Positions 25,330 through 49,291 of a stretch of DNA of 64,000 bases are shown piece by piece. The stretch lies in assembly GCA_050261115.1 (NCBI GenBank), contig JBLNCY010000031.1, positions 33,503 through 97,502 of the forward strand, in the 5' to 3' direction. Numbering within the stretch: the first letter of the stretch is position 1; every line of letters starts with the position of its first letter. A model generated the notes under the pieces. It had not been told where the DNA came from and ran no database searches. It worked only from the letters and a program-made list of their open reading frames with translations. Source of the stretch: Methanocella sp. Its GTDB lineage: Archaea; Thermoproteota; Bathyarchaeia; Bathyarchaeales; Bathycorpusculaceae. The translations under genes and the position numbers were made by a program.

Positions 25330-25342
25330 ATAACGGCGTTAT
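25330..25342. promoter_or_regulatory. palindromic operator ATAAC-N3-GTTAT upstream of metY
   Basis: ATAACGGCGTTAT, just upstream of a TTTTAAAC TATA-like box. Confidence 0.7.
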
Positions 25343-25436
25343 AATGGTTGTTGATTGTAATATTCAAAAAAGAATAAACTGCAAAAAAGAATGGAGACCT
25401 AGGAATATGAAAAAGGGCCCCTAAGCGCCAATACGC

Positions 25437-26495
25437 CTATTCTTTGGGCGGCGTATGGTTCTCCGTCTTATAATTCTGCTGCGGAGCCGCAATCGTAATC
25501 TTTGTTCCCGGCGGCACTGGCCCCGTAACCCACACGTTGCCACCAATTACCGAATTATCGCCCACAACGGTCTCAGCGCCAAGCAGTGTAGCACCTGAAT
25601 AGATGACCACATTGTTGCCTATAGTTGGGTGTCGTTTGCGGCCTTTGATAATGTTGCCCTTCTCGTCCTTGGGGAAGCTGAGCGCGCCAAGCGTGACGCC
25701 CTGATAGAGTTTGACATTATCGCCAATCTCAGCGGTCTCCCCAATTACCACGCCGGTACCATGATCTATAAAGAAGTTATTGCCGATTCTTGCGCCCGGA
25801 TGAATGTCTATACCCGTTAAGCTGTGCATATGTTCGCTCATAATGCGCGGGATTAGGGGCACACCACTCCGGTATAGTTCATGTGCAATGCGGTAAGTGG
25901 TGATTGCAAGAACAACAGGATAGCTCAAGATGACTTCATCAGTGCTAACCGCTGCAGGATCGCCTCTGTATGCGGCTTGTACGTCGCCACTGAGTTTAGC
26001 GCGAATTTCAGGTAGCTTCTCAAGAAGCTCCCGCGCAACTACATGCGCCCGCTTCTGGCAGATGTCTTGAGCACATTCGTTGTTTTTTCTGCAGATATAT
26101 TTGAGGCTCTTTTCTATCTGCTCGGTGAGCCTTATGTAGATGGAGTTGATTTTTATTCCAAGATTATACTTAATGTTTGCCTTGGTGAGTTCAGAGTCCC
26201 CTAGGTAACCAGGGAAAAGGACACTGAACAAATCTTCCAGTACCTCAATGACGACTTTTTTGGAGGGTAAATCGCGTCCTTCAAGGTGATCCATACCGCC
26301 GAATTTCTCGTAGCTAACCAACACTTCGTCTACGAGTTTAGGTATGCCCTTTATCATCCAGTCTTCCTCGACCTTAGGCTCTGACCGCATCAGGGTGTCT
26401 AGCATGCGCTCGGGGTTCCAGCAATCGACGTCCCGGTTTTTCTCTATACATTCTTTGCAGTCTTTTGGTCGAGTAGGGTTAGGTTCTGTCGTCAT
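25437..26495 (-). CDS. cysE: serine O-acetyltransferase (EpsC-type) with Cys-rich N-terminal extension
   Basis: GDPAA, YRIAH, TGIDIHPGA, FFIDHGTGVVIGET, YQGVTLGA, KRHPT. Confidence 0.92.
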   Translation of the reverse strand: MTTEPNPTRPKDCKECIEKNRDVDCWNPERMLDTLMRSEPKVEEDWMIKGIPKLVDEVLVSYEKFGGMDHLEGRDLPSKKVVIEVLEDLFSVLFPGYLGDSELTKANIKYNLGIKINSIYIRLTEQIEKSLKYICRKNNECAQDICQKRAHVVARELLEKLPEIRAKLSGDVQAAYRGDPAAVSTDEVILSYPVVLAITTYRIAHELYRSGVPLIPRIMSEHMHSLTGIDIHPGARIGNNFFIDHGTGVVIGETAEIGDNVKLYQGVTLGALSFPKDEKGNIIKGRKRHPTIGNNVVIYSGATLLGAETVVGDNSVIGGNVWVTGPVPPGTKITIAAPQQNYKTENHTPPKE

Positions 26496-26567
26496 GTCTG
26501 GTCCCTTCTCTGTATTAGTGAGTGGGACATATAAGAGAAGCGTTACAAAAAGAAAAAAGAGAGGAGT

Positions 26568-27521
26568 TTAGATGGTTGGGGGCAGGATGGGATCCTGGAA
26601 CAGTACGGTACTTAGATATCGTTCGCCTGTGTCTGGCAGTATGACGACAATCATTTTATCCTTGTTTTCGGAACGCTTTGCCACTTCAAGCGCCGCCCAA
26701 GTTGCAGCCCCCGCGGAAATGCCGACAAGCAATCCCTCTTCCTGTGCAAGCAACCGTGCGGTTTTCAATGCGGCCTCATCTGTCACCCGGATAATCTCAT
26801 CTACCAACTCTATCTGAAGGGTATCTGGTTTGAATCCTGCGCCTATTCCTTGAATTTTGTGGGGTCCTTTTGTGCCGCCGCTTAGCACTGGAGACGCAGC
26901 TGGCTCAACAGCTATGGCCTTAAAGGAGGGCTTTTTAGGTTTAATGAACTGTGCTACTCCTGTTATGGTTCCGCCTGTTCCGACCCCCGCGACTATTATA
27001 TCGGCTTTGCCTTCTGTGTCTTCCCAGATTTCTGGTCCAGTGGTTTCGCGGTGGATTTTGGGGTTGGCTATGTTTTTGAATTGCTGGGGTATGAAGCTGT
27101 TAGGGGTTTGAGAGGCGAGTTCTTCGGCTTTTTTGATGGCTCCACCCATACCCTCAGGGCCAGGGGTAAGGACGAGTTGTGCACCGTATGCTTTGAGCAG
27201 GTTGCGGCGTTCAATGCTCATGGTTTCAGGCATGGTTAGGATTAGTTTGTAGCCTTTGACGGCTGCAACCATCGCTAGACCGATGCCGGTGTTTCCGCTA
27301 GTGGGTTCGATTATAGTGGCGCCGGGTTTTAGGAGGCCTTGTTTTTCGGCTTCCTCGATCATGGCTTTGCAGATGCGGTCTTTGACGCTTCCGCCGGGGT
27401 TTTTTGATTCAAGTTTGACTATGACGGTGGCGTTTGTTTCTTGGGTTAGTTTGTTTAGGCGTATGAGGGGTGTTTTTCCGATGGTTTCTAATATGTTGGT
27501 TTTTATTGTCATTGTAACCAC
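26568..27521 (-). CDS. cysK: cysteine synthase A
   Basis: [47 protein letters not shown]. Start GTG 27521 or ATG 27512. Confidence 0.96.
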
Positions 27522-27525
27522 GTAC

Positions 27526-27542
27526 CTATAACACTGTTATAG
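27526..27542. promoter_or_regulatory. palindromic operator upstream of cysK
   Basis: CTATAACA-C-TGTTATAG, perfect 8-bp arms, between a TATA-like TTTAAG and the start codon. Confidence 0.75.
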
Positions 27543-27634
27543 TGTTTGTGCTTAAAGCCTTTATGGTAACCCCAAACCCAAGTTTAAAAAAAGCATCAAT
27601 AAAAAAGAAATTAAAACCACAATAAAAGAATACC

Positions 27635-28189
27635 CTAAAGCATCCTCAACAAATCCGCCTTGGTGATGATCCCAATAACAACACCCTTCTTGGAAACCAG
27701 AACCGCTGAATAATTCTGCAAAAGCGTAGTAATCAACGACAAAGGAGCATCCTCATTAATTTGCGGAAAAGCCTCCTCCATTATGCGCTCAGTCGGCAAC
27801 TTGGAAATTTCAGCCAAGTCTTTCCCGGCCAGAATTTCACGCAAAATTGCCTTTTCTGAAATGCTACCGACGGATTGTTTTCCGTCAAAGACGGGTATCT
27901 GGGAGTACCCGTGTTCCTTCATGATTTTCACGACTTCAGAGACCGGTTGGGTACGTTGTATGCCTACGACGTTGGTATGCACGAGTTTCTCAGCTTGGAC
28001 TTTTGTTTTGAATTCTAGGCGTTCTAAGACGTCAAAGATGGCTCGGACTTTGGTGTAGGATGAGTCTATGGTTCCAGCTTCGAGTTTGGCGATTAGGGAT
28101 TGGCTTACGCCGGCGGCTTTGGCTAGCTCGGATTGTTTTAGGCCTAGTTGTCTGCGTCGTTTGCCTATGTCTTCTAGTGTGGGAAACAT
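27635..28189 (-). CDS. XRE-HTH + CBS-pair transcriptional regulator (COG3620-like)
   Basis: LKQSELAKAAGVSQSLIAKLEAG; YSQIPV, GSISE, GIITKADLL. Confidence 0.9.
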   Translation of the reverse strand: MFPTLEDIGKRRRQLGLKQSELAKAAGVSQSLIAKLEAGTIDSSYTKVRAIFDVLERLEFKTKVQAEKLVHTNVVGIQRTQPVSEVVKIMKEHGYSQIPVFDGKQSVGSISEKAILREILAGKDLAEISKLPTERIMEEAFPQINEDAPLSLITTLLQNYSAVLVSKKGVVIGIITKADLLRML

Positions 28190-28202
28190 GGTTTATTGTT
28201 AG

Positions 28203-28215
28203 TTAACGGCGTTAT
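28203..28215. promoter_or_regulatory. operator overlapping the HTH-CBS gene TATA box
   Basis: TTAACGGCGTTAT; TAACGGCGTTATA is identical to the metY site. Confidence 0.7.
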
Positions 28216-28335
28216 ATATTCTTTTTTGAATACCAAACCCTAGTCTGAAGCACCCTAGAGCACTATGCAGAGAAAAACCTGCAGAACCCCAGAAACGACT
28301 TATAAGTATAAGCATGTTATAATCCAACGGTAACC

Positions 28336-28689
28336 ATGAACCCGCAATGCGAGATAATCGGCAAATACGTCCTACCGATATTCCGATCAATGCTAGCCAA
28401 AGAACTCGTACAAAAATACAAACTCTCCCAAACCGAAACCGCAAAAAAATTGGGCACTACCCAAGCCGCAGTCAGCCAGTATCTAAGCGCAAAACGCGCA
28501 TACAAAGGAGTAGAACACGTAGAGCAGTATCTCCCCAAAATCCAGGCAATGGCTTGCCAAACTGCCAAGAAACTAGTAAACAAAGAAATTACCGCAGACG
28601 ACATTACACCTGACTTCTGCAGTCTCTGCGCAAGCTTCTGCCGGCATAGAGAGGTTCCTGAATCAGAAAAACCCGAGTATTACATATAA
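28336..28689 (+). CDS. HTH regulator (COG2522/ThiR-N-like) with Cys motif
   Basis: PQCE..YVLP.FR..LAKEL, SQTETAKKLGTTQAAVSQYL, FCSLCASFC. Confidence 0.85.
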   Translation: MNPQCEIIGKYVLPIFRSMLAKELVQKYKLSQTETAKKLGTTQAAVSQYLSAKRAYKGVEHVEQYLPKIQAMACQTAKKLVNKEITADDITPDFCSLCASFCRHREVPESEKPEYYI

Positions 28690-28904
28690 GCACTCCACAG
28701 CAACAGAGCAGTTGCCCCATTCAGGGGGTTAATGATGTTGCAGAATTTCATTTCCATCTGCTAGCATACTTAATCAAAATGGCCCGTATACAAAAGCATC
28801 AACCAGCATACCAGTAAACAAAACGCCACCACACACCACGCAACATGCAAGGGGCAGCTAAGTCCTTATTTACCTCCACACCCTTAAAACTCATGGTGAA
28901 CTTT

Positions 28905-29408
28905 ATGACTAAAACCGACGAAAACCTAAAAGAGGCGTTTGCAGGCGAATCTCAAGCAAACCGACTCTACCTCGCCTTTGCCAAAGCAGCCCAACAAGAA
29001 GGCTTTCCCCAAATCGCCAAACTCTTCAGGGCCGCAGCCGAGGCAGAAACTGTCCATGCCCAAAACCACCTAAAAGTCATGGGCCAAATCAAGACCACAA
29101 TCGACAATCTAGGCACAGCAGTCTCAGGCGAAACGTATGAGTTCACAAAAATGTACCCCCAATTCATTGAGGAAGCAAAAGCTGAAGGAAACAAACAAGC
29201 GGTCAAGAGCTTTGACTATGCCAACAAAGTGGAAGCTATCCACGCAGAGCTATACAAAAAAGCCATCGAAAGCATAAAAGCTGGCAAAGACCTCCCAGCA
29301 GCTCAGATTACGGTCTGCCCAGTCTGCGGAAACACCTTTGAAGGCACCGAACCCGATATATGCCCGATTTGCGGAACACCCAAAAGCTACTTCATGAAAA
29401 TAGAATAG
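28905..29408 (+). CDS. rbr: rubrerythrin
   Basis: AFAGESQA, EAETVHA, GETYE, VEAIHA, CPVCG...CPICG. Start ATG 28905. Confidence 0.93.
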   Translation: MTKTDENLKEAFAGESQANRLYLAFAKAAQQEGFPQIAKLFRAAAEAETVHAQNHLKVMGQIKTTIDNLGTAVSGETYEFTKMYPQFIEEAKAEGNKQAVKSFDYANKVEAIHAELYKKAIESIKAGKDLPAAQITVCPVCGNTFEGTEPDICPICGTPKSYFMKIE

Positions 29409-29475
29409 GCCAAAGCCTAACTAACCTAACTTTTTATTTTAAGGATTACTTAACGTCGTCTAAAAAGGAAAGGGG

Positions 29476-30666
29476 TTAGGCTTTGATTTTTTGGCCGATT
29501 GCTTGGCCGAATTCAAAGCACTTCTTTAGCTCCTCAGCGGTTGGAACCCACTTTAACTCCATAGTCGGCTCTTGGGTTTCGAGGCCAAACTCTTTTGCCA
29601 TCTTGACCATGCCTCGGACTGCGCCGCCGCCCCAACCGTAGCTTCCAAAAAAGTACCATGCCTTCCCTTTGGGCTTCAAGCCGCCAGCATAAGTCAAAAA
29701 CGAGCCCAGAGAGGGAAACATCCCGTTGTTAAGGGTTGGCGAGCCAACTACGACTGCTTTTGCATCCACAATCTCAGTGACAAGGTCGGTGTTGTCGTTG
29801 CATCTTAGCTTGAGCAGTTTGACCTCAACTCCTTGACTTGCGATGCCTTCACCGATTGCGCGTGCCATCTTGTCGGTGCTGCCCCACATGGTATCGAATA
29901 CGACTACCGCTTTGTTTTTCACGATTTTGCCTGTACACCAATCGAGGTATGCGTTTATGATTTTCATGGGGTCTTTGCGCCATATGATGCCGTGGCTTGG
30001 GGCTATGATGTCGATGGGTAGCTTCATGGCTACGACTTCTTGGATCTTTTTAACGATAAGCGGCGAGAACGGTGTTAGGATGTTTGCGTAGTATGTAACT
30101 GCCTCTTCCATGAGGATTTTCTCATCCACTTCGTCGTCGAATCGTCCTGAACTTGCAAGGTGCTGGCCAAACGCGTCGTTAGGTAGAAGTATTTTGTCTT
30201 CAATTATGTAAGTGAACATGCTATCAGGCCAATGTAGCATTGGCGCCTCAAGGAAAGTCAGCGTCTTTTGTCCCAACGAGATTTTGTCGCCAGACTTGAC
30301 GACCTCTATGCGCTCAAACTCTGATCCGTAATGCTTGATGAGTTCTTCTTTGCCTCTGGCAGTCGAGTAAATTTTGGCTTGCGGTGCAAGGCGGGCAACG
30401 ATGGGTAGGCTGCTTGAGTGGTCCATCTCTACATGGTTGACGATTATGTAGTCGATTTTCTCAAGTGGCGTGTGTTCTTTGATGTGTTCGATGAGTTCGT
30501 TAGCGAAGGGGGCTTTTACGGTGTCAACTAGGGCGGTTTTTTGGTCCTGTATTAAATAAGCGTTGTATGTTGTTCCCCTATATGTTATATATCCGTGGAA
30601 GTCGCGGATGTTCCAGTCTACTACTCCAACCCAATTTACTCCTTCCTTCAGAGTGACTTTATCCAT
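29476..30666 (-). CDS. fprA: flavodiiron protein FprA
   Basis: GTTYNAY, NHVEMDHS, LHWPDSM, DAFGQH, PSHG, TMWGST, FGSYGW. Start ATG 30666. Confidence 0.93.
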   Translation of the reverse strand: MDKVTLKEGVNWVGVVDWNIRDFHGYITYRGTTYNAYLIQDQKTALVDTVKAPFANELIEHIKEHTPLEKIDYIIVNHVEMDHSSSLPIVARLAPQAKIYSTARGKEELIKHYGSEFERIEVVKSGDKISLGQKTLTFLEAPMLHWPDSMFTYIIEDKILLPNDAFGQHLASSGRFDDEVDEKILMEEAVTYYANILTPFSPLIVKKIQEVVAMKLPIDIIAPSHGIIWRKDPMKIINAYLDWCTGKIVKNKAVVVFDTMWGSTDKMARAIGEGIASQGVEVKLLKLRCNDNTDLVTEIVDAKAVVVGSPTLNNGMFPSLGSFLTYAGGLKPKGKAWYFFGSYGWGGGAVRGMVKMAKEFGLETQEPTMELKWVPTAEELKKCFEFGQAIGQKIKA

Positions 30667-30818
30667 ACTAGATATCTCCAAAATGTAACTAGTCTAAATC
30701 GTCAGGTTCAAGCGCTTAATATTAGTTTCGTCTGCAACCGCTTGGGTGCTTTAAAGGCTATATGGAGCAGTACACACAGTAGTTTTAGCTAATATAGAGG
30801 TTTTTGGAGGGCTAAAAC

Positions 30819-31463
30819 TTGAGTCTTCTTCCCCAAGAAAAAAGGGAACTGTTACAGAGAGACTTTGAAACCAGACTGGTGGATCCGGTTAAGCTTGTTA
30901 TGTTTACCCAGGAAACAGAATGCCAATATTGCAATCAAACCCGCAAACTTGTCGAGGACATGGCAACAATAACCGACAAAATTACTGCTCAAATCTACGA
31001 CTTTGTTTCGGACACTGAAAAAGTCAAGGAGTATGGGATCGAGCGTATCCCCGCGATTGCAGTCATCGGCAAACAGGATTATGGGGTTCGCATCTATGGC
31101 ATACCATATGGATACGAGTTGCAGACCCTCATTGAAGCCATCATAAACGTCTCCAGAGGACAGACAGACCTTTCTGAGAAAACCAAAGAAGTCGTCAAAG
31201 ATATCAAAACGCCAGTAAATATCAAGGTCTTTGTAAACCTAACTTGCCCCCATTGTCCAAGTGCAGCCGCTACCGCACACAAACTCGCCATCGAATGCGG
31301 CAACGTTAGAGCCGAAGTGATAGACGCCCAAGAATTCCCCGACTTAGCCCTAAAATATAATGTTATTGGCGTGCCAAAAATAGTAATAAACGAAAAAGTG
31401 GAGTTTGTGGGGGAATTTAGTGAGGACTTGTTTGCGGAGCATGTCCTGTTAGGAGCCTTCTAA
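30819..31463 (+). CDS. protein disulfide oxidoreductase (two thioredoxin folds)
   Basis: CQYC and CPHC motifs, GIPYGYE, GVPK. Confidence 0.9.
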   Translation: MSLLPQEKRELLQRDFETRLVDPVKLVMFTQETECQYCNQTRKLVEDMATITDKITAQIYDFVSDTEKVKEYGIERIPAIAVIGKQDYGVRIYGIPYGYELQTLIEAIINVSRGQTDLSEKTKEVVKDIKTPVNIKVFVNLTCPHCPSAAATAHKLAIECGNVRAEVIDAQEFPDLALKYNVIGVPKIVINEKVEFVGEFSEDLFAEHVLLGAF

Positions 31464-31473
31464 AAAAGGAGGG

Positions 31474-31719
31474 CTAGTGTTTGTGTCCGCATCCGCAGCC
31501 ACAGCTATGGTCGCTTGGTTCGTCGTCGCCTTCCCGCTTGTGGTAGTGAACTGGATGCTGTTCTTCTGAGAGTTTGATGTTCACGTAGAGTTCTGGTTCT
31601 TCTTCGAAGGCTTTCTTGCAGCCTGGAGCACAGAAGTAGTAGGTTTTGCCCTTGTAGACGGCTGTCCATTTTGCTGTACGCTCGTCTACATCCATCATAC
31701 ATACTAGGTCTTTTGCCAT
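31474..31719 (-). CDS. YHS/TRASH metal-binding protein with His/Cys tail
   Basis: AKDLVCMM.V..YKGKTYYFCAPGC; tail HSCGCGCGHKH; GGAGGTG SD. Confidence 0.88.
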   Translation of the reverse strand: MAKDLVCMMDVDERTAKWTAVYKGKTYYFCAPGCKKAFEEEPELYVNIKLSEEQHPVHYHKREGDDEPSDHSCGCGCGHKH

Positions 31720-31756
31720 GCTTGTTTCACCTCCAAACAATCTTACGAGGGGTTAC

Positions 31757-34174: not shown

Positions 34175-34327
34175 GGGGTTGCCTCCTTGAGTGTATGGTG
34201 GGGGTCACAAGCATATAAATGTGTCTGAATAAGATATATTATTTGAGTATCCATCAACCCAGAGACACAACAATCAGCCATCAAGAGACAAACTACCAAA
34301 CCCCAAACAGAAAAGCACAGCAGACAC

Positions 34328-34603: not shown

Positions 34604-34838
34604 GGGATTGTTATGGTTGTTTTTGGAATATAACTCTTCCCCGGAGGAGGTTTCTGTTTTGGGGTTTTGGCCCCGAATTTAGAGATACAAGTGAACTTAA
34701 CCATGACGTTGTTTGCATGTGTGCTTCGGATGTGGCATAAAATTGTAGAAAAACACATCTCGAGAGAAGGTGCTACTTCGAAGTTCGAAGCAACCACTGC
34801 AGATAGTGTTATAGCAAAAGCAACCCATACAGGTAGCT

Positions 34839-34949: not shown

Positions 34950-35009
34950 CAGACTTACTTTTAATTGCTAGCCTATCTGCAAAGTTGCCTATCCAGGTAT
35001 TGCGTCTTG

Positions 35010-35738: not shown

Positions 35739-35816
35739 AGCCTCATATGTCCTGTGAGGTGGATAAATAGTTTATCTGACCCTGCACACACCTCCGCCAG
35801 AACCGCTACGGAAGCA

Positions 35817-40788: not shown

Positions 40789-40872
40789 CCCCCTTTTTAT
40801 GGGGCGCTCTTTTTACACCTGAAGGGTTTATAACTAAATTAGCGCTTCACTATGGCTGGCAACTGAAGACGA

Positions 40873-42390: not shown

Positions 42391-42432
42391 TTAATTCCAA
42401 AAAACGATACTTTCTGTTAAGCTGGATATTTC

Positions 42433-43566
42433 ATGGCAAAATTCCTCGTTGTACACCCTTACCTTGACATTTATGGCGGCGGAGAAAGGGTCTGCCACCA
42501 CATAATCAAAGCACTCAACAACCATGGTCAGCGGGTGGAACTGTTAACTTTTGATTTTGACGAGGATAAATACGCAAGTATAATGGGTGAAAAGCTGCCA
42601 GATGGCATTACTGTGCGTATGTTGGGTAAACGGGAGACTGTTGAGGCTAAGCCGCCATTGTCGGTGTATAAGCGGCGCCGGAAAATCGTAAAACTACTCA
42701 ACACCTACAAAGCTACCGCGAGATATGACTATACGTTTAGCACTCAGACGCTTTCTGCCTTTGAAACCACGCTCTTTAGTAGGGCGAAGAAAAATTTTGC
42801 CTACGTGCACTTCCCAGAAATCCCCTATGACTATGAGCACGCTAAAAAATCTAAACGGATGTACCTGTGGCTGTACAAGAAACTCCTTGAAAGACACCTA
42901 AACGAGTTAGACTTGGTTTTCTGCAACAGCAACTACACCAAGGATATGACAGAAAAATACTGGAGCAAATTCGGCATCAAAAACGCAGTTATTGCCTACC
43001 CACCTGTAGAAAATGTGTTCTGGTCAAACAAACCGCTATCCGAGCGAACTAATCGGGTCTTGTATGTAGCGCGGTTCGTTCCCGGGAAACGGCATGAAAT
43101 CCTAAAGCAATTAGCCACTAACTTCCCAAATCTTGAGTTCGTTAGCGCAGGTCTGCTGCGTGATAGCGATCAAGGCTGGTTTAAAAATTTCTCAAAAGAC
43201 CTCCCCGCAAATTATCATCTCAAACCAAACCTCAGCGAAGCCGAACTAATCGAGCTGTTCCAAGACTCCACTATCTACTGCCATCTTATGCAAGGCGAAC
43301 ATTTCGGCATCGCCCCGATGGAAGCACTAGCAAGTGGTTGTATAACCATAGTGCATGACAGCGGTGGAAGCGGAGAATTTATTCCCAAAGAGTTTCGATG
43401 GACAACCTTTGAAGACCTTAAAGCAGCTATCGCTAAACTTCACTCATCAGACGCTTTTGCTTCTTGGGAAAAGCGGAAAGATGAACTGCGGGCAAAAATT
43501 TCAGTGTTGCGACCCGAAAAGTTTCAAGATATTGTTTGGTCATATGTCAGCAAACATATTGAATAA
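42433..43566 (+). CDS. GT4 glycosyltransferase, paralog of 38039..39166
   Basis: Same motif set (YLDIYGGGERVCH, YVHFPEI, CNSNYTK, EHFGIAPME). Confidence 0.88.
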   Translation: MAKFLVVHPYLDIYGGGERVCHHIIKALNNHGQRVELLTFDFDEDKYASIMGEKLPDGITVRMLGKRETVEAKPPLSVYKRRRKIVKLLNTYKATARYDYTFSTQTLSAFETTLFSRAKKNFAYVHFPEIPYDYEHAKKSKRMYLWLYKKLLERHLNELDLVFCNSNYTKDMTEKYWSKFGIKNAVIAYPPVENVFWSNKPLSERTNRVLYVARFVPGKRHEILKQLATNFPNLEFVSAGLLRDSDQGWFKNFSKDLPANYHLKPNLSEAELIELFQDSTIYCHLMQGEHFGIAPMEALASGCITIVHDSGGSGEFIPKEFRWTTFEDLKAAIAKLHSSDAFASWEKRKDELRAKISVLRPEKFQDIVWSYVSKHIE

Positions 43567-43585
43567 CAAAAAAACCCCGTTACTG

Positions 43586-44677
43586 TTATTTTAGGAGTTC
43601 TTTATAGATTTTCCAATACTTTTCCGCTTGATTAAACCAGCTATAGTTTAAGGCGAGTGCGCGACTTTTAATAGCCATTTCCCCTAGCCGGCTATCGTCA
43701 TTAATGATTAGGTCGATTTTTTCCTGATAGTTCACGGGGTTGTCGTCATTTATTACAAAGCCTTGGACGCCGTCTTTGATTATTTCACCCATGTTTGACT
43801 CTTCTGAGACTATGATTGGCAACCCACAAGCAAGCGCTTCCAATGGAGCCAACGGGAACCCCTCATAGACAGTTGGAAAAATCAGTACATCAGCTGCACT
43901 ATATGCGGCGATTAAGTCCTGCTCAGGTATTTTTCCCAAAAAAACGGTTTTTTCTGTGTTTTTTCCGTTGATACCAACGACTAGAAGTTTTGAGCATTTG
44001 GATATAGATACAGCTTTAATTGCCATTGAAAGTCGCTTTCTCTGAGGGTTGCTGCCTACCCATAAGGCATATTTCTGGTTGGGGGAGAGCGAAAGTCGTT
44101 TTCGCGCCTGCTGCTTATCCATGGGAGTAAACTTTTCTGTGTTAACCCCATTATGGATCACTCTTATTTTTTTAGCTGGGCAACCATAATATTGGATAAG
44201 CTCCTTCTTTACGGCCTCTGAGCATGCGACGGCAAGATCGCATCTGGATGCGGCTATTTTCTCGGTATATACATGGGGAATCTTTCTTGGGTCAGATGAG
44301 TCCTGTAATACTTTTACAATAGTGCCATGAAAAGTCATTAGAAACGGGGTTTTATCCCTAAATAGGGCAGTGAAGACACAGTTATCCCCATGTCCATGAA
44401 TTAGGTCATAAGGCCCATACTGTTTTGTTTTTCTCCAAACTCTGAGGTTATACTCGTATTTTCCATAATGCGGAATTCCAAATCCATGAGGTATAAAAGA
44501 GTAGTCGCGAACGCCAATTAGTCTACACCTACGCTCTTGCTCTATAAAGTCTTGGTTGCTCCGAGCAAAAACATCTACCTCTGCATTGTGTGCACCTGAG
44601 TACTTACTCAATTCGGCGACGACACTTTCGACTCCACCAGGAAATTTGGCTAGCCCTGAAACCATGCACACTTTCAT
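43586..44677 (-). CDS. GT4 glycosyltransferase
   Basis: GGVE, TFHG, VIHNGV, YEGFPLAPLEALACG. Confidence 0.9.
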   Translation of the reverse strand: MKVCMVSGLAKFPGGVESVVAELSKYSGAHNAEVDVFARSNQDFIEQERRCRLIGVRDYSFIPHGFGIPHYGKYEYNLRVWRKTKQYGPYDLIHGHGDNCVFTALFRDKTPFLMTFHGTIVKVLQDSSDPRKIPHVYTEKIAASRCDLAVACSEAVKKELIQYYGCPAKKIRVIHNGVNTEKFTPMDKQQARKRLSLSPNQKYALWVGSNPQRKRLSMAIKAVSISKCSKLLVVGINGKNTEKTVFLGKIPEQDLIAAYSAADVLIFPTVYEGFPLAPLEALACGLPIIVSEESNMGEIIKDGVQGFVINDDNPVNYQEKIDLIINDDSRLGEMAIKSRALALNYSWFNQAEKYWKIYKELLK

Positions 44678-44813
44678 GTTCTCACATAATCCGTTAACAT
44701 GTAATTCCTAGAATGCTTCGAAGGGTTCTGCATCATCTGACATATCCTTGGCGTTGGCGCTCCTTGTACATTGTTTTCTCTATTAATAGCTGCTATGGCG
44801 CTCAGGTTTTAAT

Positions 44814-45875
44814 CTACTGCAATATTTTTTCTAAATCAGCCCGAGGCGAATACCTCGAGCCTACCTTTTTATGAATCAACCATTTTAGACCCAGCATCTC
44901 TGCCATAAATTTGTTTTTAAGCTTGCTTATACGTGCAACGTCTTTGCTTAGGCAAATACTCTTGATGTCTATGGTGGTCTCGATTGCTAACAGAACAAGA
45001 CGGTGCATCAGGGATAGCCCGCGTTCAGTATCGTAGAGTCTGTAGAATAGAAGTCTATCTTCGGTGTAGAGTAGCGCTTCCTTTTTTGCCTCTTTGATGT
45101 TTCTTGACAAGGATTGCCCATGATGTACATGGTAAGCTTTAATCTCTGAGTTAAAAAGTACGTTATACCCCTTTTTCCACAGATACCACCCTAAGTATTG
45201 CTCAAATGTTAGACCTAAAATCCATGAGTCGGGGAACCTAAATCCTTTAGCAGCGTCGGCCAAAATAGACATGTTTGCGCCTTTGGCAAGAAGCGAGTTT
45301 ACGGGTTGGCTAAGCGCCCGATTTGCAACCTGGAAGTGAAAGGAGACAAATCCAGCTTTCGACAAATAAAAAAGATAATCATCCAATCCATTTATGGGAC
45401 GGTTACAAAGTTTCCATATAAAGGCATTTTCCGAATAATATTTTTTATTTACTTCCAGGATTTCTGATGAGGCGCCTTTGATTTGGCAGAGTTTGTTATC
45501 CTTGATGGTGACTGGTATAACATCGCCAGCAACTCCGCCCACTCCAGCTGTCCTGTAAGCCATGATGTATGCGGATATCAGGTCAGGCAAGGGCACTGCA
45601 TCGTCATCAAGAAAAACGAGTATTTTTCCTCGTGCATGCATTAATCCAAGATTTAAAGCATCGACCACATAGCCCTGGTTCTGTTTAACTACTTTTATTG
45701 CAAGTTTCTCACTGTACTCTTTGATTACTTCCTCAGTTGTGTCTCCACTTGGTTTTACTATCATTAACACTTCGAAGTCTTTGCTGGTTTGATTGGTTAA
45801 TGCTTCTAAAATAAACGTTAGCAGGTGTCCACGTCTGTATGTGGGTATGATAACGGATACTGTCGGTGTCTTCAT
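44814..45875 (-). CDS. GT2 glycosyltransferase
   Basis: VSVIIPTYRR, LNLGL, FLDDDA, GANMS. Confidence 0.9.
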   Translation of the reverse strand: MKTPTVSVIIPTYRRGHLLTFILEALTNQTSKDFEVLMIVKPSGDTTEEVIKEYSEKLAIKVVKQNQGYVVDALNLGLMHARGKILVFLDDDAVPLPDLISAYIMAYRTAGVGGVAGDVIPVTIKDNKLCQIKGASSEILEVNKKYYSENAFIWKLCNRPINGLDDYLFYLSKAGFVSFHFQVANRALSQPVNSLLAKGANMSILADAAKGFRFPDSWILGLTFEQYLGWYLWKKGYNVLFNSEIKAYHVHHGQSLSRNIKEAKKEALLYTEDRLLFYRLYDTERGLSLMHRLVLLAIETTIDIKSICLSKDVARISKLKNKFMAEMLGLKWLIHKKVGSRYSPRADLEKILQ

Positions 45876-45966
45876 TATCGGTATCTCTTTATTCAGGGTG
45901 CCGTTTGGGTGTTTGTTGCTTTGGGTATTTAGGGTTATCTTGTAATCCTCAAGTAAGCGACTGAAA

Positions 45967-46236
45967 TTAAAGCAAGAGCTTAATGAGAAAATCCATTAGT
46001 TCAGTTTTGGTTTTGAATCCTCGAAAAATGGCTTTGCCACTAGTGTAGAGCCGAAAAGAGACCCCCTCAAACGTCAACTCAAAGATGATGCCCGCGACCG
46101 AATTCTTCAAAGTCGCCCGCTTCATAATGGTGGCTATGGCTTCATCCTTCCGCTCATACTTAAAATTCACTATAACGTCGTTTTCGGCTCCGCAGGTTCC
46201 CTCGATACGTGAAACGTAATCAGCTACGGTTGACAT
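45967..46236 (-). CDS. small hypothetical protein, last gene of the Fe-S operon
   Basis: TAATG overlap with sufS; GTCG and FRLYTSGKAIFRG. Confidence 0.7.
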   Translation of the reverse strand: MSTVADYVSRIEGTCGAENDVIVNFKYERKDEAIATIMKRATLKNSVAGIIFELTFEGVSFRLYTSGKAIFRGFKTKTELMDFLIKLLL

Positions 46237-47462
46237 TAGAGTTTATCTAACTCTCCTAGGATGTCTATGAATCGGTCTATTTCTTCTTTTGTATTGTAGA
46301 GATAAAAGCTTGCCCGCGCCGAAGAAGATATCTTGAAAATTTCATGAAGGGGTTGTGCGCAGTGGTAGCCACTTCGAAGCATTATGCCATAGTTGTCAAA
46401 GAACAAAGCGGTATCGTGGCTGGATAGGCCTTTGATGCTGAAGGGTATGATTCCACATTTTTTAGAAAGATCCCTTGGCCCATATATGGTAACTTTTTCG
46501 CATTGCATCATGCGCTGGGTCGCGTATGCGGTAAGTTCTTTTTCGTGATTGAAAATGTTTTCCATACCTATTGCTTCGAGGTATTTTATGGCTGCTCTTA
46601 GCGCGATTACCCCACAAATGTTTGGTGTGCCTGCCTCAAACTTGTAGGGTAACCCATTCCAAGAAATGCCGCATCTACCACTCTGGAGGGAGACTTCACG
46701 GATCATTTCGCCGCCGCCTTGGAAGGGAGCCATTTTCTGCAGGAGGTCTCTCTTGCCGTAGAGAACCCCTATTCCCGTGGGGCCAAGCATTTTATGGCCC
46801 GAAAAAGCCAAAAAGTCAGCATCGAGGTTTTGTACGTCGATTTTCATGTGGGGCACCGATTGGGCGCCGTCGACAAGCATCAGTGCACCGTTGTCGTGGG
46901 CTGCTTTTGCTATGCGTTTAACGTTGTTTATGGCGCCTGTGACGTTTGAGACTTGGCTTAGGCAGCAGAGTTTTGTGTTTTTGGTGATTTTGTTTTCGTA
47001 GTCGTCGTAGTCGAGGGTTCCGTCGTCGTTGACTTTGGCGTATTTTATTGTGAAGCCTTTGATTTTAGAGACGATTTCCCAGGGTACAATGTTGCTGTGA
47101 TGCTCCAGTACAGAGGTAAGTACCTCGTCGTCTTTGCTAAGGTTAGCTAACCCCCAAGAGTAGGCGACAAGGTTGATGGCTTCGGTTGTGCCCCGAACAA
47201 AAATGACTTCTTCGGGTGATTTGGCGTTGATAAAGTCGACTGTGCATTCTCTGCCCCGCTCATAGAGGTCGGTTGCTTCGGCGCTGAGGGTGTGGACACC
47301 TCGGTGGACGTTACCGTTGTGGTTCTCGTAGTAGTCAGTTATGGCATCGATGACTTGGCGGGGTTTTTGGGTGGTGGCCGCGTTGTCAAAGTAGATGAGG
47401 GGGTAGCCATTTATTTTCCGCTGCAGGATGGGGAAGTCTTGGCGCAGGGCTTGGAGGTTTAT
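46236..47462 (-). CDS. sufS: class II cysteine desulfurase SufS, probable ATA start
   Basis: Open frame of 408 sense codons: (I)NLQALRQDFPIL..YFDNAATTQKP..EHHSN..DGAQ..SGHKM..EAGT..RSGYHCAQP..RASF. The ORF track truncates it at ATG 46880. Confidence 0.92.
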   Translation of the reverse strand: MNLQALRQDFPILQRKINGYPLIYFDNAATTQKPRQVIDAITDYYENHNGNVHRGVHTLSAEATDLYERGRECTVDFINAKSPEEVIFVRGTTEAINLVAYSWGLANLSKDDEVLTSVLEHHSNIVPWEIVSKIKGFTIKYAKVNDDGTLDYDDYENKITKNTKLCCLSQVSNVTGAINNVKRIAKAAHDNGALMLVDGAQSVPHMKIDVQNLDADFLAFSGHKMLGPTGIGVLYGKRDLLQKMAPFQGGGEMIREVSLQSGRCGISWNGLPYKFEAGTPNICGVIALRAAIKYLEAIGMENIFNHEKELTAYATQRMMQCEKVTIYGPRDLSKKCGIIPFSIKGLSSHDTALFFDNYGIMLRSGYHCAQPLHEIFKISSSARASFYLYNTKEEIDRFIDILGELDKL

Positions 47463-47968
47463 TGTTTTTCTGCCTCAGCTTTCATCTTCTTTGAGAGTTT
47501 TTGCGCCAACTCTTCCTCTTCAAGCGCTTGTTTTTCTTCAAAGGTGTGTTCTTTGCTGAGCCAACTTGGGAACTCTGCGCCCTTTTGAGTGAAGTATTGG
47601 CGTATGGCACGTTTTAGAGCGCCCACTGCTAGAACACCGCAGTGGAATTTTACGCTGGGTAAGCCGCCGATTTCTTCGGTAACTTTTTGCCAGGTAACGT
47701 TTTTCCAAGCATCCTCTAGGGTTAGGCCTTTGATCATTTCGGTGACTATGCTAGAAGTGGCTATGTTGGCGGCACAGCCGTAGCTTTCAAACTGGGCTTT
47801 TTCGATGATTTGTTGGTCGTTGATTTTTAAGTAGAAGGTGATCATGTCGCCGCATGCAGGGTTGCCTGCGACCGCGACGACGGTTGCATCTTCCATTTTA
47901 CCCAGGTTCTTGGGGTTTCGAAATAGATCCATGACTTTGGGGTTATACGGTAAGGGTATACGTGACAT
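47459..47968 (-). CDS. iscU: Fe-S scaffold IscU/NifU-N
   Basis: FRNPKNLG, GNPACGD, YGCAA, KFHC. Start ATG 47968. Confidence 0.92.
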   Translation of the reverse strand: MSRIPLPYNPKVMDLFRNPKNLGKMEDATVVAVAGNPACGDMITFYLKINDQQIIEKAQFESYGCAANIATSSIVTEMIKGLTLEDAWKNVTWQKVTEEIGGLPSVKFHCGVLAVGALKRAIRQYFTQKGAEFPSWLSKEHTFEEKQALEEEELAQKLSKKMKAEAEKQ

Positions 47969-47969
47969 T

Positions 47970-49193
47970 TTAGTGCACTCCTGTTGAGCCAACTATCCCT
48001 CTGATACGGTTGACCGCTTCTGGTAAAACTTTCAGGACGTAGTTTATATCGTCTTCTGTATGGCTGCGGTTAACCTTCATTAGTATGCTGCCGTGGGCTT
48101 CTTCAAATATTCGGCCGATAGCGATTAAGACGTGGCTGGGCTGTAATAATCTACGACTGCAAGCTGATCCGCTAGAAACGTAGACGCCTTTGAGGCTGAG
48201 TTCGATGGTTAGGGCTTCGCCTTCAGCTCGTAGGATGCTTATGTTGGCGTTGTCGGGGCTGCGCTTGTCGCCTTTGGGGCCGTTAAAGCGGAGATCAGTT
48301 AACTCGTTGAATATGCCATCGACCAACTGGTCACGGAGACCGCGTAGTTTAGCTACGTTTGCATCAAAGTCGGTAAAGGCTAGTTCTGAGGCTTTGGTGA
48401 ATCCGACGATAAGTGGGGTGTTTTCGACGCCGGGCCAAAGCTTTTGGGTGCCAATCGGTCCTTCTAGGATGCGGTCTAAATTGACGCCTTCCTTGACGTA
48501 TAGGGCGCCTACCCCTCGTGGACCCTGGATCTTGTAGCTGCTGACTGTGGCTAAGTCTACGCCGAGGCTCTGGACATTTAGAGGGATTCTGCCGTATGCA
48601 TCGGAGGCGTCGGTGTGGAAGAGAGCGTTTGGGTTTTTGGCTTTGACGATGTCGACGGCTTGCTTGATTGGCTGGATGGTGCCCACTTCGTTGTTTACGC
48701 TATGGAGGCTTACTAGGGCGGTATCGTTGTCGACTGCGGTTTTGAGTTTCTCAAGGTTGATTTCACCCTCAGTGTTTACGGGGATTTTTTGTACGTTGAA
48801 CCCGAATTTGCTCATCATTTCGGCGACTTGCAAGACATTTATGGGTTCGATTTCTGAAATGACGATTTTTTTTGCTTTGCCTTTCTGTGAGAAGCAGCCG
48901 CCTATGATGGCGAGGTTGTTGGCTTCGGTTTCGCCGGGGGTGAAGGTGAGTTCCTCGGGGTTTTTTGCTCCGAGGTAGCTGCCGACTTTTTGGAAGCAGC
49001 CCATGAGTGTTTCGAAGGCTTCCCAGCCGGGTTTGTGGGTTAGGGTGGGGTTTCCGTAGGCTTTTTGATTCCAGTAGGGCATCATAGCGTCTAAGATTTC
49101 TTGGGGGACTCTGCAGCTGTTTTCGTTATCCAAGTAGACTTCGTGGGTGATTCCCTCGTGGAGTTGGAGAAGGTTCCTTATGTTTTCAACCAT
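47970..49193 (-). CDS. iscS: class I cysteine desulfurase-like (IscS/NifS) with atypical active site
   Basis: YGNP, TEANN, NNEVGTIQP, K..GPRG, VSSGSACS; several PLP/substrate residues substituted. Confidence 0.8.
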   Translation of the reverse strand: MVENIRNLLQLHEGITHEVYLDNENSCRVPQEILDAMMPYWNQKAYGNPTLTHKPGWEAFETLMGCFQKVGSYLGAKNPEELTFTPGETEANNLAIIGGCFSQKGKAKKIVISEIEPINVLQVAEMMSKFGFNVQKIPVNTEGEINLEKLKTAVDNDTALVSLHSVNNEVGTIQPIKQAVDIVKAKNPNALFHTDASDAYGRIPLNVQSLGVDLATVSSYKIQGPRGVGALYVKEGVNLDRILEGPIGTQKLWPGVENTPLIVGFTKASELAFTDFDANVAKLRGLRDQLVDGIFNELTDLRFNGPKGDKRSPDNANISILRAEGEALTIELSLKGVYVSSGSACSRRLLQPSHVLIAIGRIFEEAHGSILMKVNRSHTEDDINYVLKVLPEAVNRIRGIVGSTGVH

Positions 49194-49278
49194 ACAGTAT
49201 CCTGCCTGTTTTGAGAGATTAGATAACTCGTCACTGTGGATTATGACTGTTCAGGTAATAAAATGTAGCTGTATAAAA

Positions 49279-49291
49279 ATAACGGTGTTAT
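49279..49291. promoter_or_regulatory. palindromic operator upstream of iscS-iscU-sufS
   Basis: ATAACGGTGTTAT abutting a TTTTATAC TATA-like box on the minus strand. Confidence 0.7.

Follow-up and report, generated by a model that had tools for sequence, protein, structure and literature searches.

A conserved pair of palindromic operators, A (ATAAC-N3-GTTAT) and B (TATTC-N6-GAATA), together with two adjacent XRE-type regulators, appears to form the core of a sulfur amino-acid regulon in this bathyarchaeal lineage, a model to which we assign a probability of roughly 0.55. The sites, their conservation, their gene linkage and their phyletic patterns were observed directly in a window of 64,000 nucleotides (the whole stretch of DNA analysed) and in related genomes. 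Our literature search found no published description of such a regulon, and the model gives a first, testable view of the possible control of sulfur amino-acid supply in archaea of this kind.

Operator A in cysteine and methionine gene promoters

Gene names in the window agree with Pfam and NCBIfam profile matches (MetW, MetX-type hydrolase, MetY, hexapeptide CysE, CysK, HTH_3 with two CBS, HTH_3, NifS/IscS-type desulfurase, NifU_N/IscU and SufS; Table 1), and the cysE product also scored 158 bits against the NCBIfam profile for EpsC-type serine acetyltransferase (cut-off 150).

Table 1. Genes, putative operators and a promoter element in the window, numbered from its first nucleotide
Feature	Position	Strand	Evidence and placement
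metW	22267-22860	-	Pfam MetW
metX-type hydrolase	22862-23824	-	Pfam Abhydrolase_1
metY, O-acetylhomoserine sulfhydrylase type	23988-25289	-	Pfam Cys_Met_Meta_PP, E 5.6e-134; first gene of metY-metX-metW
Operator A, metY type (ATAACGGCGTTAT)	25330-25342		Perfect; 40 nt 5' of metY ATG at 25289 (minus strand)
Operator B (TATTC-AAAAAA-GAATA)	25361-25376		About 17-18 bp from A; A+B form the composite metY module
cysE, hexapeptide serine acetyltransferase	25437-26495	-	cysE domain 166.5 bits, below equivalog cut-off 210.65
cysK	26568-27512	-	NCBIfam cysK 469.8 bits, above cut-off
Operator A, cysK type (ATAACACTGTTAT)	27528-27540		Perfect; 15 nt 5' of cysK ATG at 27512
TATA-like element (AAAGGCTTTAAGC on gene strand)	27550-27566	-	About 10 nt 5' of cysK operator
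HTH-CBS regulator, XRE-type HTH + CBS pair, 184 aa	27635-28189	-	Pfam HTH_3 40.3 bits, CBS 63.8 bits (2 stretches)
A-like site (TTAACGGCGTTAT)	28203-28215		One mismatch; 13 nt 5' of HTH-CBS ATG at 28189
Operator B (TATTC-TTTTTT-GAATA)	28217-28232		Over HTH-CBS promoter
A-like operator of small HTH gene (ATAAGCATGTTAT)	28308-28320		One mismatch; 15 nt 5' of ATG at 28336
Small Cro/C1-type HTH regulator, Cys-bearing, 117 aa	28336-28689	+	Pfam HTH_3 25.4 bits, cut-off 23; candidate A reader
sufS	46236-47474	-	Pfam and NCBIfam; frame read stop to stop
iscU	47459-47992	-	Pfam and NCBIfam
iscS/nifS-like desulfurase	47970-49193	-	Pfam and NCBIfam
Operator A (ATAACGGTGTTAT)	49279-49291		Perfect; 85 nt 5' of iscS-like ATG at 49193

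Scanning the window returned perfect copies of A at 25330, 27528 and 49279, against 0.09 expected, and none of 100 shuffles reached at least three; allowing one mismatch gave nine copies against 1.79 expected, a count likewise reached in 0/100 shuffles. All five sites reported by the first-pass annotation, including the one-mismatch copies in the regulator-gene promoters at 28203 and 28308, were found where it had placed them, as were the 13 identical bp shared by the metY and HTH-CBS sites (TAACGGCGTTATA), and the 8-bp arms that it ascribed to the cysK copy stand when read around one base (CTATAACA-C-TGTTATAG, 27526-27542). Four further one-mismatch copies that it did not list are all within reading frames: at 25768 in the hexapeptide/cysE gene, at 42980 in a glycosyltransferase gene, and at 49722 and 46172 in frames of 184 and 89 aa without a Pfam match, the last being intergenic by our map of ORFs of at least 100 aa. 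These four look like chance occurrences.

Across the whole genome (2.15 Mb), the bare motif is only modestly enriched (seven perfect copies against about 2.8 from a base-composition estimate; 20 permuted-arm control palindromes gave 0-13 copies each), but five of the seven lie outside ORFs of at least 100 aa, in DNA that makes up 16% of the genome. Copies within one mismatch of ATAACGSCGTTAT were intergenic in every case (5/5), as compared with 7 of 57 two-mismatch copies. The signal of A resides in its position and extended sequence, not in the bare 10-base motif.

The motif is kept in orthologous promoters of related Bathyarchaeia, which bears out the view that it is a genuine regulatory site associated with the Cys/Met genes and with both neighbouring regulator genes. 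Specifically, a perfect A lies within 130 nt 5' of metY in 24/26 related genomes (with one mismatch in one more), the spacer being GCC or GGC in 20/24, and 26 of the 29 same-genus cysK promoters hold a perfect copy, with varying spacer and flanks. The TATA-like element upstream of the cysK site recurs at the same place in the cysK promoters inspected as GGCTTTAAGCA, GGTTTATTTCC or GGTTTATAAC, and this conserved element is presumably the TATA box. From these patterns, we regard it as very probable that A is a selected cis-regulatory site. The coupling to Fe-S assembly that had been proposed fares less evenly: only 5 of 30 orthologous iscS promoters carry the site, perfectly in the window, G034 and G005 and with one mismatch in G032 and G008, a distribution that marks it as lineage-specific; the link is real in this genome but young.

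A candidate reader of A

The small HTH gene is preceded, 13-20 nt 5' of its start, by ATAA[G/T/A]-N3-GTTAT in 29/30 loci, and the site is also found in other families of the order, at 42-52% protein identity; such order-wide conservation of an own-promoter site is the usual signature of autoregulation. C is absent from the fifth position of this site (G 15, T 10, A 4), so that the gene's own site, lacking the C of ATAAC, may represent another class of site. NCBIfam and structure searches gave the protein no named family and no fold match. Among 29 aligned sequences, three cysteines (C5, C95 and C98) and the recognition-helix residues T41, Q43, A44, A45, S47, Q48 and Y49 are invariant, T42 is nearly so, and V or I occupies position 46. 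The gene adjoins a ThiI/PP-loop sulfurtransferase gene in 4/4 loci of other families, and a perfect A precedes the sulfurtransferase gene in G053 and G050. Within G025, from which HTH-CBS and MetY are both absent, the small HTH gene still diverges from cysK-cysE, and each of the two promoters keeps A.

On this evidence we lean towards the small HTH protein as the reader of A, and of the two neighbouring regulators that the first-pass annotation had considered, it fits the better. The assignment is nevertheless tentative, because three nearly complete genomes, G008 (100% complete), G017 (97%) and G019 (98%), keep A at cysK with no small HTH ortholog found; the same holds for the less complete G009 and G021. 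Overall, A stands at cysK in 21/22 genomes with the small HTH gene and in 5/7 without it, a weak contrast among related genomes. The G019 cysK promoter differs from that of a small-HTH-bearing relative, G031, at few of about 75 positions, and its retention of A may therefore be too recent to count.

The retention of A in G017, G019 and G008 could instead reflect a genus-wide third factor, whether a small HTH paralog or an unrelated global regulator, with the two neighbouring regulator genes as targets and not readers, or else the reading of A by both local regulators. Nearly all genomes searched contain the paralog, whose recognition helix is very like that of the small HTH protein, and the three classes of A site keep class-specific letters. 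However, the paralog's own promoter holds a different conserved operator, ATGAC-N4-GTCAT, twice, distinct from A in both letters and spacing. Its helix carries R in place of Q at a base-contact position, a substitution that would fit the A-to-G change in the half-site and so favours the small HTH protein as the reader of A. Further, in this genome no regulator gene other than the local ones adjoins an A site, and the autoregulation signature at the small HTH gene and the near identity of the G019 and G031 promoters also speak against a third factor, which we consider unlikely.

Operator B and the HTH-CBS regulator

A second palindrome, B, and the composite module that it forms with A were absent from the first-pass annotation. 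The B palindrome has three copies in the genome, two of them intergenic. It lies within 70 nt of the HTH-CBS start in 27/29 loci, including one from another genus, at 60% protein identity, where B is identical, the recognition helix (SQSLIAK) is the same and the rest of the intergenic region is different. Among other-family loci with a SQSLIAK-type helix, L110 and L033 show ATTAC-N5-GTAAT at B's place, while L111 is unclear. B also occurs 5' of metY in 25/26 genomes, and it keeps both arms where no divergent gene requires a promoter, as at metY in the window. These associations make the HTH-CBS protein a likely reader of B.

Across the order, the HTH-CBS gene tracks metY, hcyBio or metK. Eight of the ten same-genus genomes without it also lack MetY, and in relatives it adjoins hcyBio (G052, G060, G045 and G053) or the archaeal SAM synthetase gene (5/6 other-family loci with neighbours tested), so the protein is very probably a regulator of the methionine/SAM pathway, in agreement with the first-pass annotation, and probably senses SAM. 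Our search found no solved structure of a full-length relative.

The main proposal of the first-pass annotation put the HTH-CBS protein in charge of the entire regulon through ATAAC-N3-GTTAT, in which case B would be only its core promoter or another factor's site. In favour of this, the window's genome and G034, its closest relative, have A-like sites in the HTH-CBS promoter, and in most relatives the gene diverges from metY across an intergenic region that contains A. Moreover, A is kept at metY in G024, G008 (one mismatch) and G009, in none of which was a small HTH ortholog found; the metY-type A always accompanies B at a fixed distance, such that one oligomer could span both; and a metK-linked HTH-CBS subfamily has ATAAC-N5-GTTAT just 5' of its own start (13/15 perfect, 2/15 with one mismatch). 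Yet the HTH-CBS promoter holds A in only 2/29 loci, as opposed to B in 27/29, and A persists at cysK in four genomes where no HTH-CBS ortholog was found (G025, G017, G019 and G021). A-type sites also precede the small HTH gene where the family's HTH-CBS recognition helix differs, and B retains both arms where it has no divergent gene to serve. We judge this reading improbable, more so than a third factor. In the window, the copy at 28203 is not squarely over the HTH-CBS TATA box, as had been described, but just 3' of the TATA-like ATATATAA, between that element and the ATG.

The composite module (A, about 17 bp, B) precedes unrelated transcription units. Two more copies occur in this genome, on contig C27, where the targets are a 901-aa PQQ/Ig-like protein and an alpha/beta hydrolase with no evident sulfur link. 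G020 has five within 30 kb, at metY; a BcrAD/HGD-D operon; an NMT1-type ABC binding protein gene divergent from sulfite reductase and a CysK-like gene; LivHM permeases; and an EamA exporter gene divergent from a Liv-type binding protein gene.

Transcripts and the remaining alternatives

RNA-library contigs (four coded runs) cover metY and cysK. The metY contigs stop at 25298 and 25302, and the small HTH contigs start at 28341 and 28342, in each case beside the A site, which as expression evidence is a weak hint only. The cysK contigs extend through the site to 27571 and 27579, and A would therefore sit inside the cysK leader, not at the start site. This would suit a palindrome that acts as RNA, a 5'-leader hairpin controlling translation or stability, as would the capacity of the cysK copy to fold into a 7-bp hairpin 15 nt 5' of the start codon and the enclosure of the Shine-Dalgarno sequence by the N5 version in other families. 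However, the predicted fold of the cysK leader does not surpass that of shuffled sequences (z -0.74), the loop varies whereas the arms keep one sequence and show no compensatory substitutions, and five-base AU-rich arms are weak as RNA; the metY and small HTH contigs, which do not include the site, count weakly in the same direction. An RNA role is very improbable.

Chance, or an AT-rich promoter composition with no dedicated regulator, would accommodate the genome-wide count, which is within the control range, and the TATA-like letters (TATAA) of arms near TATA boxes, but it is already largely refuted by the shuffled windows, by position-specific conservation of both arms across 24-29 genomes while flanks diverge, and by the separate TATA-like element 5' of A at cysK.

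A model for the regulon

We infer the pairing of proteins with sites, the sign of regulation and both ligands as follows. Operator A would be a protein-binding DNA site at or just 3' of the TATA region in three promoters, those of cysK-cysE, the small HTH gene and metY-metX-metW; in this lineage it also stands 5' of iscS-iscU-sufS and of the HTH-CBS gene. The divergent 117-aa Cro/C1-type protein would bind A as a dimer and act as a repressor that obstructs the pre-initiation complex, while the three cysteines invariant in this protein may respond to the status of sulfur, thiols or Fe-S. The HTH-CBS protein would bind operator B, which lies over the TATA region of its own gene and 17 bp 5' of A in metY-type promoters, and its CBS pair is proposed to sense SAM or a related adenosyl compound. 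Promoters of the metY type could then integrate a methionine/SAM signal through B with a cysteine/sulfur signal through A.

Comparison with known systems

The archaeal repressors MDR1, LrpA and Phr bind at or just 3' of the TATA box and are autoregulatory. The proposed system shares with them a palindrome that follows a TATA-like element and precedes the transcription start or start codon, as well as putative autoregulation, but would involve other protein families and signals. A CBS-domain protein that would act on archaeal promoters via an upstream site has a parallel in HhpR of Pyrococcus yayanosii, a CBS-only transcriptional activator (PMC11705074); unlike the HTH-CBS protein, HhpR lacks an HTH, contains four CBS domains and responds to pressure (PMC11705074). 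The HTH-CBS protein scored 17.9 bits against the NCBIfam HhpR profile, far below the cut-off of 520.

SurR of Thermococcales is a winged-helix protein, and neither the HTH-CBS nor the small HTH protein gave a winged-helix Pfam match. It resembles the present case as an archaeal, sulfur-related regulator that has redox-active cysteines and a short palindrome whose spacer is 3 bases long, but its half-sites, GTTn3AAC (PMC12162507 and three other papers), are reversed relative to the AAC-N3-GTT inside ATAAC-N3-GTTAT. Moreover, the targets of SurR belong to hydrogenase and S0-reduction energy metabolism and not to Cys/Met synthesis.

IscR belongs to the Rrf2 family and holds a [2Fe-2S] cluster by three Cys and one His. 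In function, the small HTH protein recalls IscR and CymR/CysK of bacteria, being a small, presumably dimeric regulator that has three conserved cysteines, would regulate itself and would control cysteine synthase, cysteine desulfurase/IscU and sulfur-transfer genes. It differs from IscR in being of the Cro/C1 HTH_3 type, with no Rrf2 match in Pfam or NCBIfam and no structural match, and in an iscS link confined to few genomes; any cluster in it would be hypothetical.

Finally, as with MetJ and its SAM corepressor in Escherichia coli and other gammaproteobacteria, and with SahR (regulons treated in PMC4239095 and PMC3228920), a protein and not a riboswitch is proposed as the sensor of the methionine/SAM end product. 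Palindromic boxes precede methionine genes and the regulator's own gene in both systems, and metJ is likewise divergent from met genes. A Pfam search gave no MetJ match among the tested window proteins. MetJ, which binds SAM directly, is of the ribbon-helix-helix type, whereas the regulator proposed here is archaeal, combines an XRE-type HTH with a CBS pair and would use another operator.

Operator A in the window and across the genome

A pattern scan of the 64-kb window returned three perfect copies of operator A (ATAACNNNGTTAT; ATAAC-N3-GTTAT), located before metY, cysK and the iscS-like gene, as the first-pass annotation had claimed; 0.09 copies would be expected by chance, and none of 100 dinucleotide-preserving shuffles reached three. 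Allowing up to one mismatch, the window holds nine copies against 1.79 expected, including the two that had been reported before a pair of divergent regulator genes, one encoding a helix-turn-helix protein with a CBS pair (HTH-CBS) and the other a 117-aa, Cys-bearing helix-turn-helix protein (small HTH). The accompanying statement that every copy noticed lies in a promoter holds for these five sites, but four further one-mismatch copies (25768, 42980, 46172 and 49722) fall within open reading frames, the frame enclosing 46172 being only 89 aa long and without a family match. The gene names in the window agree with both Pfam and NCBIfam. Specifically, cysE, encoding a hexapeptide serine acetyltransferase (25437-26495), sits between cysK and metY, and the start of cysK is likelier to be the ATG at 27512 than the GTG at 27521.

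Operator sites in the window and composite A+B modules in the relative G020
Feature	Window position	Location	Basis
Operator A, metY	25330	40 nt to metY ATG	DNA and ORF list
Operator A, cysK	27528	15 nt to cysK ATG	DNA and ORF list
A-like site, HTH-CBS	28203	13 nt to HTH-CBS ATG	DNA and ORF list
A-like site, small HTH	28308	15 nt to small HTH ATG	DNA and ORF list
Operator A, iscS-like gene	49279	85 nt to ATG	DNA and ORF list
Operator B, HTH-CBS promoter	28217-28232		genome pattern scan
Operator B, metY	25361-25376	18 nt from metY A site	genome pattern scan
G020 module 1		upstream of metY	
G020 module 2		upstream of BcrAD/HGD-D (2-hydroxyacyl-CoA dehydratase-like) operon	
G020 module 3		NMT1-type (sulfonate-type) ABC binding protein, divergent from sulfite reductase and CysK-like gene	
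G020 module 4		upstream of LivHM-type permeases	
G020 module 5		EamA exporter, divergent from Liv-type binding protein	

A scan of the whole assembly (2.15 Mb in 66 contigs, with the window at G000:C31:33503-97502) gave a divided answer. The bare count was unremarkable, with 7 copies versus ~2.8 by a base-composition estimate, 0-13 copies for 20 control palindromes with permuted arms and 0-8 for other spacers, but the position was notable: ORFs of 100 aa or more leave 16% of the genome uncovered, and five of the seven perfect copies are found there. Because the genome-wide enrichment of the bare motif is weak, we relied on position and conservation. All five genome copies of the extended form ATAACGSCGTTAT within one mismatch are intergenic, as are just 7 of its 57 two-mismatch copies genome-wide. 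Over-representation and confinement to promoters, the pattern expected of regulon sites, were thus both found for operator A.

Two of the five ATAACGSCGTTAT copies lie on another contig, C27, upstream of genes for a 901-aa PQQ/Ig-like protein and an alpha/beta hydrolase, neither with an obvious link to sulfur. A possible 47-codon ORF (L001 4049-3906, on the minus strand of G000:C27) opens 20 nt past the A site at C27:4070 and precedes the hydrolase gene. Other intergenic one-mismatch copies, at genes for a proteasome subunit, a glyoxalase-like protein, an epimerase, a PUA/TGT protein and an Ig-like protein, share no theme and were therefore treated as chance; the 13-mer also occurs outside the genus and in the relatives G006, G025, G026 (contig C84) and G015 (contig C22), where its copies lie within long ORFs and look like chance.

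Conservation of operator A among relatives

The search took in 60 related genomes, 36 of them from the same genus and 24 from other families of the order. Most genomes of the genus have metY and the HTH-CBS gene as a divergent pair, and the region that the two share contains ATAACGGCGTTAT at a distance of ~28-48 nt from the metY start; the stretch from this site to the ATG is variable. By pattern count, a perfect operator A lies within 130 nt upstream of metY in 24 of 26 genomes, and that of G008 carries one mismatch; in G004, the contig (L078, G004:C8) turns into GC-rich, unrelated DNA at metY codon 14 and looks like a chimeric assembly, for which reason this promoter was left unscored. Of 29 genomes of the genus, 26 have operator A upstream of cysK, the spacer varying among them (AGT in 9, ACT in 5, ACC in 5 and others in 7), and ATAAN-N3-GTTAT lies 13-20 nt upstream of the small HTH start at 29 of 30 loci, a count that covers other-family genomes in which the protein identity is only 42-52%. 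Conservation in orthologous promoters amid diverged flanks was therefore found, which confirmed that operator A, with conservation taken into account, exceeds chance by far, and the idea of a regulon, as far as it concerns the Cys/Met genes, is supported by this check in related Bathyarchaeia.

The proposed coupling to the Fe-S operon stood in part. Operator A is perfect before iscS in the window, but only five of the 30 orthologous promoters have a site, three of them perfect (window, G034, G005) and two with one mismatch (G032, G008), and this link is young and lineage-specific. Most of the 30 genomes share the iscS leader itself (window 49194-49278; loci L048-L077), in the form GGTTAGGTTTTTTTAGTTGAAC ... 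GACGAGTTATCT ... AGGTAGGATACTGTATG, and this leader may represent a further control element that is independent of the A site. Downstream in this unit, the sufS frame (46236-47474, minus strand) is full length from stop to stop at 412 aa, contains no ATG, GTG or TTG before residue 199 and opens over the iscU stop codon, an arrangement pointing to a non-canonical start or to coupling by termination-reinitiation. A 184-aa ORF (49358-49912, minus strand) with a hydrophobic N-terminus lies just upstream of the iscS operator; it encloses the one-mismatch copy at 49722 and has no match in Pfam or NCBIfam.

The hcyBio-CBS gene (G000:C53:63341-64990; loci L192-L221), for homocysteine synthesis of the methanogen type, has an A-like site with one mismatch 54 nt upstream in this genome; the other 29 genomes all lack the pattern there (1/30 overall), and the gene was dropped as a conserved target and retained just as a weak, genome-specific candidate. 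Its promoter has an element of its own, TGCG(C/T)AAA(A/T)ATTA...GCG, in most of the 30 genomes. Directly adjoining the regulator pair are genes for a rubrerythrin, a flavodiiron protein and a double thioredoxin-fold protein (28845-31463), and no A or B site was seen upstream of these oxidative-stress genes.

A second operator and a composite module

When the HTH-CBS promoters were aligned, a second palindrome became apparent, (A)TATTC-N6-GAATA(T), which we call operator B; at 27 of 29 loci, it sits directly over the TATA-like letters of the gene. In another genus, in which the protein is 60% identical, B has the same letters within an intergenic region that otherwise differs. Its pattern has three copies in this genome, two of them intergenic. 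Together, A and B form a composite module with the order gene start, ~40 nt, A, ~17 nt containing TT-TTG(C/A), and B, which is found at metY here, at the two sites on C27 and upstream of metY in G034, G014, G005 and G008. The relative G020 (L034/L035; G020:C90:1-33000) carries five such modules within 30 kb, in what looks like an expansion of the regulon in that one genome. Further, both arms of B are kept where no divergent gene needs a promoter, and the DNA past B diverges. Hence, B is a site in its own right, beyond its place in the HTH-CBS core promoter.

Promoter geometry and transcripts

The cysK promoter has a conserved TATA-like element (GGCTTTAAGC or GGTTTATTTCC), then operator A ~10 nt downstream and, after A, a Shine-Dalgarno-like GGTG; the A-type site of the small HTH gene directly adjoins TTTATTAA or TTATAAG. 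These positions suit a repressor, which, when bound, would occlude assembly of the transcription machinery at A promoters. Four coded metatranscriptome runs were examined as contigs, which cannot prove transcript starts and come from RNA libraries that may contain DNA. The contigs at metY end with adapter letters at 25298 and 25302, 9-13 nt before the ATG, those at the start of the small HTH gene begin at 28341 and 28342, and those at cysK pass through A and reach 27571 and 27579; one contig from run X18 spans cysE, B, A and the start of metY. Cover was absent at 27588-27841 and had a depth of 0-3 over most of the HTH-CBS gene, where it is uninformative. These contigs weakly suggest that two of the promoters have A beyond the transcript and that the cysK leader may contain it. 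A reading of A as an RNA hairpin was rejected on a fold z-score of -0.74 and an absence of compensatory changes.

Which protein reads which operator

The HTH-CBS protein belongs to the XRE/Cro-C1 group (Pfam HTH_3, PF01381; 40.3 bits versus a cut-off of 23) and carries a tandem CBS pair (Pfam CBS, 63.8 bits in two stretches, residues ~62-183), the part of the protein that is matched by CBS-only PDB chains. The first-pass annotation had proposed that either this protein or its divergent neighbor reads operator A. For the HTH-CBS protein, this proposal is unlikely: its own promoter has an A-like site at only 2 of the 29 loci, nearly all of which have B, and A is kept at cysK in G025, G017, G019 and G021, genomes in which no HTH-CBS ortholog was found. 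We therefore assigned B, not A, to the HTH-CBS protein, and predict it to be the reader of B with a probability of roughly 0.7. Among three other-family loci of the same helix type, two (L110 and L033, but not clearly L111) carry a related palindrome, ATTAC-N5-GTAAT, in the same place.

The neighborhoods of HTH-CBS genes suggest what the protein may sense. The gene is absent from 10 of the 36 same-genus genomes, and eight of these ten also have no MetY match at E of 1e-40 or better. In G052, G060, G045 and G053, relatives that share the recognition helix SQSLIAK adjoin hcyBio. A second subfamily, with helix SQAHIAK, is divergent from the gene for the archaeal SAM synthetase at all five of the loci whose neighbors were tested; a sixth such test, on a locus with helix SQSLIAK, gave a PALP enzyme as the neighbor instead. 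This linkage to genes of homocysteine, methionine and SAM (metY, hcyBio and metK) makes it plausible that the CBS pair senses an adenosyl ligand such as SAM, AMP or ATP. The metK-linked subfamily (L112-L126, in other families) has a palindrome of its own, ATAAC-N5-GTTAT, around the Shine-Dalgarno sequence GGAGG and 3-6 nt before its own start, perfect at 13 of 15 loci and with one mismatch at the other two; the arms are as in A, the spacing is different, and an ATATAT..GATAT element lies upstream.

The small HTH protein also matches HTH_3 (PF01381; 25.4 bits versus a cut-off of 23), and its relatives bear PF09048 (Cro) in a precomputed list. Recognition-helix residues T41, Q43, A44, A45, S47, Q48 and Y49 are invariant in 29 aligned sequences, as are Cys5, Cys95 and Cys98. 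Its AlphaFold model is all-helical (mean pLDDT 76.9), and a Foldseek search of this model against the PDB gave no match at E <=0.001 and none at E <0.6. By sequence, neither regulator has a full-length relative in the PDB or an NCBIfam model at cut-off, and the ESM Atlas gives only unnamed archaeal 'transcriptional regulator' clusters.

As the alternative reader of A, this divergent neighbor fared better, with evidence on both sides. The A-type site at its own promoter is conserved across the order. In G025 (95% complete), which is without HTH-CBS and MetY, the gene and cysK-cysE still form a divergent pair, each with an A-type site at its promoter. In four other families, it adjoins a ThiI/PP-loop protein gene, which has a perfect A upstream in G053 and G050; further neighbors or targets in other families include Thi4, FdhD, a PALP enzyme and the FTR1 iron permease. 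Against it, A is present at cysK not only in 21 of 22 genomes with an ortholog but also in 5 of 7 without, including G008 (100% complete), G017 (97%) and G019 (98%), and retention of the metY module in G024 and G008 was likewise counted against it. The cysK promoter of G019 has few differences in ~75 positions from that of G031, a relative that bears the small HTH, so a recent loss is possible there; retention in G017 is not so easily explained in this way. On balance, we favor the small HTH protein as the predicted reader of A, somewhat less firmly than we assign B to the HTH-CBS protein. The model should therefore shift to one of two regulators and two operators, both pairings being predictions.

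A paralog of the small HTH protein (G000:C53:12602-12886; L162-L181), present in nearly every genome searched, marks a putative separate regulon. Its promoter has two conserved ATGAC-N4-GTCAT palindromes just upstream of its own TTTAAATA TATA box, which hold in about 20 genomes, other families included. The paralog has the helix TQSAVSRY, versus TQAAVSQY in the small HTH; a position that differs contacts bases in phage repressors, and the pairing of Q with A and R with G is textbook reasoning rather than a result.

In a broader and more doubtful reading, the 117-aa Cro-like protein would found an archaea-wide family that senses Fe-S clusters or persulfides and rules sulfur trafficking, paired here with a SAM-sensing HTH-CBS repressor. 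Its targets would comprise cysteine synthase, cysteine desulfurase/IscU, PP-loop sulfurtransferases and iron uptake, making it a functional equal of IscR/CymR with an unrelated fold, and the composite two-operator promoters would gate methionine synthesis by both sulfur supply and SAM demand.

Significance and comparison with known systems

To our knowledge, archaea are without the bacterial regulators CysB, CymR, MetJ and MetR, and mostly without SAM riboswitches. In the mainly open literature searched, we found no described transcriptional control of archaeal cysteine or methionine synthesis. The composite module, if it works as predicted, would be an unusual case of two-signal integration at an archaeal promoter, and under the broader reading, if true, promoters with two inputs would be described for the first time in archaeal amino-acid metabolism. 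Both regulator families appear to extend well past the genus, and DNA near-identical to window positions 23900-28800 occurs in contigs from digester, sludge, compost and biofilm metagenome runs. Given that the organism is an uncultured member of the Bathyarchaeia, a regulon map is one of few routes to its physiology, and the locus offers two defined operators and two small, soluble candidate regulators that are directly testable at the bench.

The statement that no description of such a regulon was known agrees with the mainly open literature we searched on COG3620, archaeal CBS regulators, XRE and CBS in archaea, cysK and operators, and Bathyarchaeia regulons, which yielded no archaeal Cys/Met regulator, no characterized HTH-CBS transcription factor and no description of the A motif. 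The system differs from that of SurR, whose motif is given as GTTn3AAC in PMC12162507: the half-site order of A is opposite, SurR governs different genes, and Pfam on both regulators matched only HTH_3-type families. By function, MetJ/SAM and SahR are closest to the HTH-CBS protein, and IscR/CymR to the small Cys-HTH. Neither regulator matches the ribbon-helix-helix MetJ domain in Pfam or NCBIfam, and no Rrf2 match was found in these collections despite the three invariant Cys residues of the small HTH. As for the CBS pair, HhpR is a CBS-only activator according to PMC11705074, and passages of PMC1282579 treat CBS as a SAM-binding fold and contain no mention of regulators such as these. Set against these systems, the regulator and operator described here are of a known kind, built from uncharacterized archaeal regulator families.
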